The notes under the pieces were generated by a model. The model was not told the DNA's origin. It was given only the letters and a program-made list of their open reading frames with translations, and made no database searches. From a virus: a stretch of DNA of 64,000 bases. The stretch lies in the UHGV virus genome UHGV-1483955; one strand, written 5' to 3'. The position numbers and the translations under genes were made by a program. Every line of letters begins with the position of its first letter. The stretch's first letter is position 1. Positions 4,550 to 6,096 of the stretch are shown here, piece by piece.

Positions 4550-5014
4550 CAGGGTTTTCGTCATGGTTAGCGACTTTGCGGCGGTTTAGAAACTGACCAT
4601 TAAAGTAAATGCAAACGATGATCTGATGATGGTAGCGGCCTAAGAAGCCAGACGCCACGGGGTATGAGTCGTCCCCCGTCAAAAAATCGACCGCAGAGTG
4701 TCCCCGTCTGTGTATTAGGGAACGGGGAGGCACAACAGGTAAGGGCGCTGGTGTGATTAACCAGATGAACGAGAAGGGGCCATCTGTTGGTCAGCGTCCT
4801 TTCCTGTTGCGTCTTCTTTTCAGCGTAACAGCGGTGCTTAACAGCACTTTGGGTACAGTTCCACGAATTTACGGGTATATCCCGTCATGCTGAAAGCGCT
4901 AATCACGCTGGAAGCCAGGGTTATGCATCCCCTGTTACCGAATTGCAGCCAGGGCGCGGTGCGCCGAAAAGCATACGGAGGTGGAAGCCCTCGCCGGAGA
5001 CGTACCCGGCAAGT

Positions 5015-5090
5015 GATGGTGTAGCTCAGCGGTTAGAGCGGTTGACTGTTAATCAACGGGTCGATGGTTCAAATCCATCCACCATCGCCA
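5015..5090 (+). tRNA. tRNA-Asn (anticodon GTT)
   Basis: Manual cloverleaf: acceptor GATGGTG/CACCATC, D-arm GCTC/GAGC, anticodon stem GTTGA/TCAAC with loop CTGTTAA, T-arm GATGG-TTCAAAT-CCATC, encoded CCA. Confidence 0.85.
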
Positions 5091-5092
5091 AT

Positions 5093-5168
5093 GCCGGTTT
5101 AGCTCAGTTGGTAGAGCGCCTGCCTTGTAAGCAGGATGTCAGCGGTTCGATTCCGTTAATCGGCACCA
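5093..5168 (+). tRNA. tRNA-Thr (anticodon TGT)
   Basis: Manual cloverleaf: acceptor GCCGGTT/AATCGGC (one G-U), anticodon loop CTTGTAA, T-loop TTCGATT, encoded CCA; 2 nt after tRNA-Asn. Confidence 0.85.
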
Positions 5169-6096
5169 GCACAACAGGTAAGGGTATTTTGCGACGTCGG
5201 AGATCGCCGAGCTTGGCAGAGGGTTCGAATCCCTACGAAGTACCCTTACCGTTGTGATGAATGCGCAGGCTGATGCGCGAAAGACATTGCAGCTATTGCG
5301 GAAAAGAGCTGTTCGGCGGGGCAATTAAACGCCCGTGAGAGTCTGAAATAACCGCAAGCCGGAGATCAGCACCGGTCATCACAACACAACAGGTAAGGGC
5401 ATTCTCCCTTATGGGGCTTGGCTTAAATGCATCGAGTGCTCTTACCGTTGTGATGAAGTGCAGCTCTTTGAAGCAACCAGAAGATAAGCATCTGGCTTCA
5501 CAACATAAACCGCAGGAACGACCAATAAACGGTAGTCCGTATGGAGAACACCCCGTTGAGGAAGAGGCCTGGCCGGAACCGTAACCGGCACTACAACGTT
5601 GAGAACACTGGCGTAACGGGGTCATATCCCAATCTACGAATAAATGTTGCGTTGCAGCGTGACAACCAGTGTTCTCAACATTGTGGTGAATGCACAGGCT
5701 GATGTGCCGCAACTACAGTAGTGCGCGCTTTGCGGGGCTTGCTACAACCCTGTGTCGGAGTTCAGCACCGACCATCACAGTTTGATTCTCTGGCATGAGC
5801 ATAACGCTGAAATAAGTCCAGCCTGGTGCGGCCCGATCACCCGCCGTTAGCTCCACGAAACGGAGCACGTAACAGGTAAGAGCATTCTCCTGTAACGGGT
5901 TCATATCCCAATCTACAGGTCCACCAAGAATGCTCTTTCCGTTGCGGTGAATGCGGCTAAGCGCACGCGGGGAAATGGTTATATCAGTCCATTCATTTCT
6001 CCTTGTTTCCCCGTCCACGGTGGATAACCAGCCAAAGGACACCGGGAGGCACCCGGCACCGCAGCTTTTTTATTCGTTAAATAATGGAGTGAGAGG

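Follow-up and report, generated by a model that had tools for sequence, protein, structure and literature searches.

The stretch of DNA analysed here (64,000 nucleotides of the virus genome UHGV-1483955, hereafter the window) comes from a P1-like phage and carries, around its genes for tRNA-Asn and tRNA-Thr, five long hairpins, H1 to H5. These hairpins belong to a conserved family, H, which is found in hundreds of enterobacterial phages and is not specific to P1, and selection acts on their RNA structure, a conclusion that is strongly supported by covariation between their arms. They stand in an array with tRNAs, tRNA-like modules and a tag module that resembles transfer-messenger RNA (tmRNA) and, as far as sequence can tell, they may serve as processing spacers of a polycistronic non-coding RNA, a reading to which we would give an even chance. 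What may be new here is the use of a processing-type hairpin as a repeated, sequence-conserved spacer in phage arrays of tRNAs and small RNAs (sRNAs). For the hairpin family, for the fold of one of the tRNA-like modules (D2a) and for the phage tag module we found neither an Rfam 15 family nor a description in the searchable literature, and a preprint on the P1 transcriptome does not treat the region.

An initial annotation of the region, made from the letters alone, had proposed five long hairpin units in an ACAAC...GTTGTG frame, with stems that differ from unit to unit and remain complementary, and this proposal has held up well. All five units fold as long hairpins, with minimum free energies of -34 to -49 kcal/mol and z scores of -4.6 (H1), -5.4 (H2), -5.9 (H3), -7.7 (H4) and -7.2 (H5), and none of 200 shuffled sequences folded as well as any of them. 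Scans for direct and inverted repeats recover both the shared frame and the differing, self-complementary arms. The frame common to all five consists of CACAAC, a bulged A and the ascending stem, followed by the descending stem and GTTGTG, with variant feet in H5 (CGTAAC...GTTGCG) and H4 (TACAAC...ATTGTG). Each hairpin is an irregular duplex of about 20 bp, built from 6 bp, the bulged A, 2 bp (GG/CC) and a U.U or U-A position, above which a stem of 10-14 bp (10-11 bp in the frame of the family at large), specific to the unit yet self-complementary, carries a variable tip. H1, for instance, reads CACAAC-A-GG-U-AAGGGCGCUG ... CAGCGUCCUU-U-CC-U-GUUGCG, whereas H4 keeps the frame with wholly different arms (GUUGAGAACACUGG / CCAGUGUUCUCAAC), and the lower stem of H5 is CGUAAC / GUUGCG. 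Below the branching of the tip the predicted stems comprise 19-23 pairs, which is the size of duplex (at least 20 bp, or about two turns) expected of an RNase III substrate.

Membership of the family was assessed with a covariance model, R1, trained on 40 hairpins, all of them taken from non-P1 phages, with the sequence type of the hairpin of phage lambda included. On the whole window the model finds exactly five sites, namely H3 (56.2 bits), H2 (54.8), H5 (50.5), H1 (37.6, E = 1e-7) and H4 (33.0), with E values from 2e-12 to 2e-6, and all five lie in non-coding DNA, on the same strand as the tRNAs. In three cases the plus-strand score is about 20 bits above that of the minus strand (30.7 bits for H2, 33.4 for H3 and 29.5 for H5 on the minus strand); H4 scores 33.5 there.

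The spread of the family beyond P1-like phages had been missed by the initial annotation, as had the tmRNA-like module just upstream of H1. A sensitive BLAST search with positions 5169-6070 matched 224 phage records, among them lambdoid, P22-like, T1-like, FelixO1-like and Vi01-like phages and Klebsiella siphoviruses, in which the matching DNA is nearly always unannotated, and one N4-like phage has a hairpin of the same design with different arms. A 16-mer at the 3' junction of the hairpin occurs in more than 120 IMG/VR contigs and, bar a handful of chance matches in coding DNA, a hairpin of this design stands upstream of it. A tRNA lies within 2 kb of the hairpin motif in 10 of 60 scanned IMG/VR loci, on the same strand in all 10, and in the lytic phages SUSP2, T751, swi2, Uz-1 and Vi01 the elements are found within or beside tRNA clusters, again on the tRNA strand. 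Tips range from 27 to 110 nt across the family and, apart from a few conserved tip families, are hypervariable in sequence. A scan of bacterial genomes with a 17-mer of the 5' arm returned mostly chance matches, with a matching 3' arm in 19 of 120, nine of which are lambda-identical contaminant contigs. Vi01 has, in an array of the same kind, a long spacer hairpin of different sequence (AAAUCUGUUUGGGAGG... / ...CCUCCGCCCAAACAGAUUU; about 2690-2835 of its locus, L129), which suggests that the hairpin design is older than the sequence family.

The evidence for selection on RNA structure comes from the arms of 80 distinct H copies from unrelated phages, gathered by a probe at the 3' foot and with the register of the bulge set for each sequence. 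In this alignment 92.1% of cells are paired, compared with 84.1% when partners are shuffled (0 of 500 shuffles reach the observed value) and with 36-52% when partners are slid by one to three columns. Compensatory, two-sided changes occur at 13 of the 20 pairs (112 cells), far beyond what the five copies in the window had offered, and one U.U mismatch and one U.G wobble position are conserved within the stem. Counted on the tRNA strand, G.U and U.G cells outnumber A.C and C.A cells by 141 to 30. Covariation together with this excess implies that the selected object is the RNA read from the plus (tRNA) strand, so that the earlier suggestion of selection on RNA structure is borne out. Palindromic DNA repeats of the ERIC, REP or MITE type, which should have no strand preference, were rejected on the same 141:30 ratio.

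The setting of the hairpins is best read against P1 itself, to which positions 4300-6200 are 97-98% identical. In the P1 annotation the stretch falls between dmt and ban and holds the C1-controlled ban promoters and operator, a 'dicF-like region', tRNA-Asn, tRNA-Thr and two minus-strand open reading frames (ORFs), plp and upl; onward to ban come tciABC (in whose place the window has other genes), tRNA-Ile(CAT) and ban. The hairpins flank tRNA-Asn and tRNA-Thr within the non-coding leader of the ban operon, which C1 controls. The array begins directly 3' of a strong intrinsic terminator at 4523-4550 (stem at 4523-4542, then 7 U in a terminator scan), and the C1-repressed ban promoter would drive it rightwards by reading past this dicF-like terminator. 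Its parts are as follows, with the limits of all hairpins taken from the covariance model.

4454-4550, plus strand: dicF-like region of the P1 annotation, ending in the intrinsic terminator
4552-4730, plus strand: tmRNA-like tag module, 5' of H1
4731-4811, plus strand: hairpin H1
4812-5014, plus strand: spacer S1, between H1 and tRNA-Asn
5015-5090, plus strand: tRNA-Asn(GTT), called by ARAGORN; Rfam tRNA model 74.5 bits
5093-5168, plus strand: tRNA-Thr(TGT), called by ARAGORN; Rfam tRNA model 73.4 bits
5170-5256, plus strand: hairpin H2
5254-5382, plus strand: tRNA-like module D2a-1, from sequence, with a covariation-backed fold
5385-5452, plus strand: hairpin H3
5450-5501, plus strand: miniature degenerate D2 module, from the direct-repeat families D1 and D2 and from sequence
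5592-5685, plus strand: hairpin H4
5683-5778, plus strand: tRNA-like module D2a-2, from repeats, sequence and covariation
5868-5946, plus strand: hairpin H5
5943-6071, plus strand: module D2b, STnc100/PasD-like, from a sub-threshold Rfam STnc100 match

The order is accordingly tag module, H1, spacer, tRNA-Asn, tRNA-Thr, H2, D2a, H3, miniature D2, spacer, H4, D2a, spacer, H5 and the STnc100-like D2b. The two tRNAs sit between H1 and H2, in the type of slot that tRNA-like modules use elsewhere, and the 3' end of S1 is a hairpin analogous to a T-arm (GCCGGAGACGUACCCGGC, 4993-5010), 4 nt 5' of tRNA-Asn. ARAGORN and Rfam find only tRNAs in the window, namely Asn, Thr and a Met at 7169-7244. At the Rfam gathering level these three are the only matches, and the hairpins and D2 modules are likewise unmatched in 13 related loci. 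In the close relative Ro157c2YLVW a tRNA-Tyr (locus L002, 1793-1879) is inserted between tRNA-Asn and tRNA-Thr.

The junctions between these parts are tight. At its two feet each hairpin comes within 0-3 nt of its neighbours, on one side the 3' end of a tRNA or tRNA-like module and on the other the opening base of the next module; H2, for example, begins 2 nt past the CCA of tRNA-Thr. Every D2 module has its start inside the final 3 nt of the hairpin before it; the base at -1 is U and that at +1 is G, the context that E. coli RNase P prefers. The five hairpins were placed correctly by the initial annotation, and the 3' extensions that it gave to four of them (to 5279, 5465, 5709 and 5960) belong to the next module. 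On the 5' side, the acceptor-like 3' strand of the previous module often ends in the CAC that precedes a hairpin. The 3' foot, GUUGUG(GUG), is complementary both to the upstream CACAAC within the hairpin and to the downstream CACCACAAC in the acceptor-like stem, and a U-to-C change in this foot of H5 (GUUGCG) is matched on both partners, by CGUAAC upstream and CACCGCA downstream.

The modules between the hairpins come in two flavours, D2a and D2b. The motif GTGATGAATGCRCAGGCTGATGYGC, reported earlier as following three of the units, turns out to be the 5' part of D2a; it is complete after H2 and H4 and degenerate after H3, and H5 is followed instead by the other flavour, with GGTGAATGCGGCTAAGCGCAC (identities within this post-unit motif family, D1, are 100/62/82/62%). 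These modules mimic the tRNA cloverleaf. A D2a module opens with an acceptor-like stem of 7 bp (GUGGUGA / (U)CACCAC), from which two linker bases lead to a hairpin resembling a D-arm, GCGCA-GGCUGA-UGCGC; in its middle a variable insert of about 20-110 nt replaces the anticodon arm, giving whole modules of 64-153 nt, and its 3' part holds a T-arm analogue (CCGG-AGAUCAGCA-CCGG), the acceptor-like 3' strand and an A, followed by AC... instead of CCA. The D-loop GCUGAU is complementary, in Watson-Crick fashion, to the T-loop AUCAGC. In D2a-1 the acceptor-like stem is GUGAUGA/UCAUCAC, followed by A8 and U9, the D-arm GCGCA-GGCUGA-UGCGC, an insert of 77 nt, the T-arm analogue CCGG-AGAUCAGCA-CCGG and A plus AC..., without CCA. 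D2a-2 reads GUGGUGA ... GCACA-GGCUGA-UGUGC ... GUCGG-AGUUCAGCA-CCGAC-CAUCAC, and the miniature module GUGAUGAAG ... CCAGA-AGAUAAGCA-UCUGG-CUUCAC.

In 33 distinct D2a copies, whose selection did not use the D-stem or the loop-loop helix, all four helices hold, with 93.4% of cells paired against 19-48% in slid controls. Double changes are seen in the D-stem (GC/AU, CG/UA), in the loop-loop helix (GCUGA/UCAGC versus GUCGA/UCGAC) and in the T-stem. The compensatory change in the small hairpin that had been noticed between two copies in the window (GCGCA/TGCGC versus GCACA/TGTGC) is genuine, and other phages add the variants GCGTA/TACGC and GCGAA/TTCGC.

D2b, after H5, has a closing stem UGCGGUG/CACCGCA and a last hairpin CCGGG-AGGCA-CCCGG, followed by GC and a U run. 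Its positions 5943-6063 align with positions 31-147 of the Rfam family STnc100 (RF02076) at 37.8 bits and E = 3e-6, below the gathering threshold of 47, and at gathering level STnc100 was found in none of the 13 related loci; no Rfam family matched D2a. STnc100 and PasD are Hfq-associated prophage sRNAs that have been argued to share an ancestor (Zhu, Shabalina and Storz, bioRxiv 2026, 10.64898/2026.05.13.724894). The module after H5 has the closing stem, the first hairpin and the last hairpin in common with them, whereas the H hairpins lie outside that family and D2a, the commoner flavour here, has no match in it. In E. coli K-12, the DicF terminator of the Qin prophage (locus L131, about 19435-19470) and the KilS terminator of Rac (locus L133, about 9388-9420, minus strand) are each directly followed by a D2b start, GUGGUGAAUGCGGCU..., upstream of dicB and kilR respectively, and this order of terminator and D2b parallels that of the dicF-like region and the array in P1.

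A prophage of Yersinia massiliensis (locus L150, minus strand, about 170-330 nt from the hairpin start) has an H hairpin directly followed by a tRNA-like element. This element has a genuine D-arm and T-arm, an aberrant middle (a 4-nt 'anticodon' loop and a long insert) and a 3' ACC, and receives no ARAGORN call; in Vi01, D2-like modules carry canonical T-loops. Both cases indicate that it is the D2 modules, not the hairpins, that are the tRNA-like or tRNA-derived parts.

For the hairpins themselves, a tRNA origin is weakly supported. The initial annotation had seen strings resembling the tRNA T-loop in several of their loops, which we find in H2 (GGGTTCGAATCCC), H4 (GGGGTCATATCCC) and H5 (GGGTTCATATCCC, in a tip that contains GGGUUCAUAUCCC), and it was right that none of the five makes a canonical cloverleaf: ARAGORN calls none of them, and the Rfam tRNA model (RF00005) has no match to them even at E = 10. 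The tip of H2 combines a D-arm-like hairpin with a T-arm-like one (AGGGUUCGAAUCCCU) and is found on other arms in non-P1 phages, including lambdoid contigs, and the tip of H3 is 90-92% identical to one within FelixO1-like tRNA clusters, where the arms differ. Among 97 copies, T-arm-like hairpins occur in the tips of 12-16, compared with 0.2-1.4 expected; about 85% of tips have none, and H5 of phage Ro157c2YLVW lacks exactly the 13-nt GGGTTCATATCCC mini-hairpin. The earlier idea of tRNA-derived structured RNAs is thus weak for the hairpins and applies better to the modules between them. The only Rfam matches of the hairpins at E up to 10 are miRNA-precursor models, which we rejected as reflecting generic hairpin shape, and a single 27-bit match to YrlA / bacterial Y RNA (RF02553, gathering threshold 69) was likewise rejected, lying as it does over the two real tRNAs (5035-5152).

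Another part of the array, the tag module, raises the question of whether phages encode a trans-translation template of their own. Its frame at 4611-4643 reads GCA AAC GAU GAU CUG AUG AUG GUA GCG GCC UAA, that is ANDDLMMVAA*, or 10 codons and a stop. The module is present, and throughout unannotated, in 333 phage records, including P1-like, Vi01-like, N4-like, T1-like and FelixO1-like phages. Among the loci that were fetched it has 32 distinct nucleotide versions, every one with 10 codons and a stop; ANDDVVLMAA is spelled in seven ways and ANDDLMLMAA in four, and such synonymous variation at a constant length argues for selection on the peptide. In the alignment a covarying hairpin lies 3' of the frame, followed at about 4692-4727 by an H-type pseudoknot, both stems of which, read by eye from the alignment, change in step between phages.

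The tag of E. coli tmRNA (SsrA) is ANDENYALAA. The phage frame resembles it in starting with GCA AAC GA, an alanine codon first, and in ending with a hydrophobic stretch, two alanines and a stop, with the hairpin and one pseudoknot to follow. It differs in that the module has no closing acceptor stem: by eye, neither an acceptor stem with G3.U70 nor a T-arm nor a CCA was found in or next to it, no T-loop motif occurs within 900 nt downstream of the tag in 27 of 102 loci, and neither ARAGORN nor Rfam at gathering level calls a tmRNA on it. The Rfam tmRNA_permuted model gives a sub-threshold 24.1 bits, in which the tag region alone is aligned. We found no literature on phage tmRNA-like tags. A permuted or two-piece tmRNA made of hairpin and tag module, with the hairpin arms as acceptor strands, was considered and rejected because the tips have no CCA and there is neither a G3.U70 nor a conserved T-arm before the hairpin. 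A hidden tmRNA acceptor in Vi01 around ...CGGCUCCACA was also rejected, since the ends in question pair otherwise, in the long spacer hairpin and a D2-like module. In phage swi2 (locus L128, 2411-2785) ARAGORN reports a 'tmRNA' with the nonsense tag AKAVRLRKCSFRCGECAG*, a call assembled from the start of a spacer hairpin and the 3' end of tRNA-Met. About 100 nt upstream of it stands the real tag-like frame, ANEEMYLAVA*, and spurious calls of this kind may already be present in published phage annotations.

How the hairpins might work can be approached from their structure, strand, conservation, position and family membership, all of which are established here, and it is from these that we infer the enzymes and the order of events. 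A hairpin would fold co-transcriptionally and would then be cut by RNase III, freeing the neighbouring RNAs, as happens in the stems of ribosomal RNA (rRNA) and in hairpins of T7 and lambda, and the bulge and the mismatch would possibly restrict the cut to one strand. RNase P would then cut at the U/G1 junction, trimming the 5' end of the downstream tRNA-like module. Until this release the hairpin would keep the 5' strand of the next module paired, given that GUUGUG has two possible partners, CACAAC upstream and CACCACAAC downstream. In RNase III in particular as the cutting enzyme we have less confidence than in the role as a processing spacer. Processing or stability elements co-transcribed with the tRNAs were among the options raised in the initial annotation; this option is also our best reading of their predicted role.

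Known systems offer partial parallels. E. coli RNase III requires a stretch of double-stranded RNA about two helical turns long, and internal loops limit its cleavage to one strand, as in T7 R1.1. The RNase III stems of rRNA operons, of T7 early mRNA and of the T4 tRNA cluster are, like H, irregular duplexes of at least about 20 bp between RNAs of one transcript, in which conserved bulges or internal loops can steer single-strand cuts. H differs in being a closed hairpin that stands between modules, where a leader-trailer helix would enclose one, and in having a lower stem whose sequence is kept across very different phages. The T4 species 1 and 2 (rnaC and rnaD) are structured non-tRNA RNAs that are co-transcribed with phage tRNAs and matured by tRNA-processing enzymes. 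Structured non-tRNA RNAs within a phage tRNA transcript are predicted for the window as well, although the T4 RNAs are not repeated spacer hairpins.

The closest parallel may be lambda itself, in which positions 44789-44862 are a member of the family (CACAAC-A-GGUAAGAGCAUUG ... CAGUGCUCUUUCC-GUUGUG). This hairpin stands 8 nt past the tR' U run, in the part of the late leader that separates 6S RNA from gene S. RNase III sites are reported to lie just beyond the 6S terminator and would probably fall in this hairpin. As in the window, the lambda hairpin stands right after a terminator in a long non-coding leader; it differs in being a single copy that is followed by a vestigial tRNA-like module and no tRNA, where the window has five copies among tRNAs. 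A paper of 1988 on the RNase III sites of the lambda Q-dependent late RNA (Daniels, Subbarao, Blattner and Lozeron, Virology 167:568) appears as reference 49 in PMC7547250, and beyond this citation of its title we found no text describing RNase III sites in the lambda late leader. As an RNase III site, the single hairpin of lambda is probably not new and dates back to 1988.

Several observations weigh against the view of the hairpins as processing spacers. Sequence is highly conserved in the lower half of the stem, where G8-C39 and A12-U35 are invariant; RNase III does not demand such conservation, which could reflect a sequence-specific partner or a dual role in pairing. Part of the conservation at the 3' foot was imposed by the search, because the probe sits at the 3' junction of the hairpin. 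The tips of the H2 and H3 types are conserved across phages while their arms change, which suggests a function that would be superfluous for a mere processing signal. Finally, no H copy was found in the three cryptic prophages of E. coli K-12 that were examined (Qin, DLP12 and Rac), so that published K-12 maps of RNase III cleavage are unlikely to help.

Some of the same observations lend themselves to other explanations. The hairpin could be a stable functional RNA, whose long stem offers a variable tip, in some copies a mimic of the tRNA elbow, to a host factor as a decoy or sponge, with RNase P, TruB/TrmA, the CCA-adding enzyme, SmpB or a tRNA-targeting defence nuclease as candidate targets. 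The enrichment of T-arm-like hairpins in the tips, the recurrence of H2-type tips (D-arm-like plus T-arm) and H3-type tips on different arms in unrelated phages, and the conservation of the lower stem, as for a protein-binding site, would all fit; yet a T-arm is missing from most tips, whose length and sequence are in other respects hypervariable, a natural P1-like variant does without the T-loop element of H5, and the tRNA model matches none of the hairpins, so that we consider a decoy unlikely. We would rate similarly low the idea that the hairpin is never cut and is instead a folding insulator or switch, in which the pairing of GUUGUG with CACAAC gates the acceptor-like stem of the next module and so times its maturation or activity. 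The double complementarity of the foot, the change in H5 that is matched on both partners and the covariation in both helices are what such a switch would produce. The overlap, however, is just 3 nt (GUG), no full D2 module follows the lambda hairpin or H1, and tandem copies share CACAAC by descent, so that complementarity to both partners may simply follow from the way the repeats are built. Of comparably low probability is a trans-translation device in pieces, in which the array would combine the tag template with a separately supplied tRNA-like domain; the donor of this domain would be a D2 module, a hairpin H with D-arm-like and T-arm-like hairpins in its tip, or host tmRNA with SmpB, and cuts by RNase III or RNase P at the hairpin feet would make the ends needed. 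If it were true, P1-like, lambdoid, T1-like, N4-like, Vi01-like and FelixO1-like phages could re-tag or rescue stalled host ribosomes.

Two further explanations give the hairpins a secondary role or none. The conserved arms might be linkers for the exchange of cassettes by homologous recombination, the hairpin being secondary. In favour of this, a 196-nt cassette holding D2a-1 and H3 is present in the window (5245-5457) and absent from P1 (locus L001, 2436-2464), with its breakpoints in the direct repeat CTTACCGTTGTGATGAA at 5245 and 5441; Ro157c2YLVW lacks another cassette, H2 plus D2a-1; and D2a-1 recurs at 98% identity downstream of cI, in non-coding DNA of the lambdoid phage mEp460 and of Stx2a phages, and next to tRNAs in the Klebsiella siphovirus IME207. 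Recombination linkers, however, do not need self-complementarity, and neither the compensatory changes nor the excess of G.U on one strand would be explained, which makes this account more doubtful still as the primary one; as a secondary effect it has real support, and a role as linker can coexist with an RNA function without replacing it. Least probable of all, in our judgement very much so, is that the units are functionless, either as decaying remnants of duplicated tRNAs or because the region encodes the minus-strand proteins Plp and Upl. T-loop-like strings are present, P1 annotates plp and upl on the minus strand here, and the window has minus-strand ORFs of 139 and 109 aa that match them (5139-6042) and overlap the hairpins and the D2 modules. 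Against this, the structure is kept with compensatory changes across hundreds of phages, and the homologous DNA is unannotated in most other phage records. Moreover, the 196-nt cassette lies inside plp and alters the C-terminal part of the protein, and since its length is not divisible by three, close relatives do not keep the same Plp frame; the annotated plp and upl are probably spurious.

Taken at its broadest, about 1.5 kb of the P1 ban leader and the late leader of lambda, two of the best-studied phages, share a conserved RNA grammar that lies outside both annotations and Rfam. Its parts are the spacer hairpins, small RNAs that resemble tRNAs and have a Watson-Crick 'elbow', and a tag template of the tmRNA kind. 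Should the hairpins prove to be processing signals, this would explain how long antiterminated transcripts give rise to free phage tRNAs and to prophage sRNAs like STnc100 and PasD, provide a handle for finding such sRNAs in any enterobacterial phage, and make clear why the plp and upl 'genes' of P1 are likely to be artefacts.

Two minor observations concern matches outside phage records. The late-leader stretch of lambda turns up in short or low-coverage contigs from, among others, Pseudomonas, Psychrobacter and Algoriphagus assemblies and Chromatiales and Pseudomonadales metagenome-assembled genomes; these contigs (L149, L151, L178, L185, L188, L216, L218, L236 and L240) are identical to lambda, with one base off in L188, and are probably lambda DNA contamination. 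Positions 6032-6065 of the window match at 100% spacers of annotated CRISPR arrays in two E. coli chromosomes (NZ_CM128586.1 and NZ_LR025101.1).

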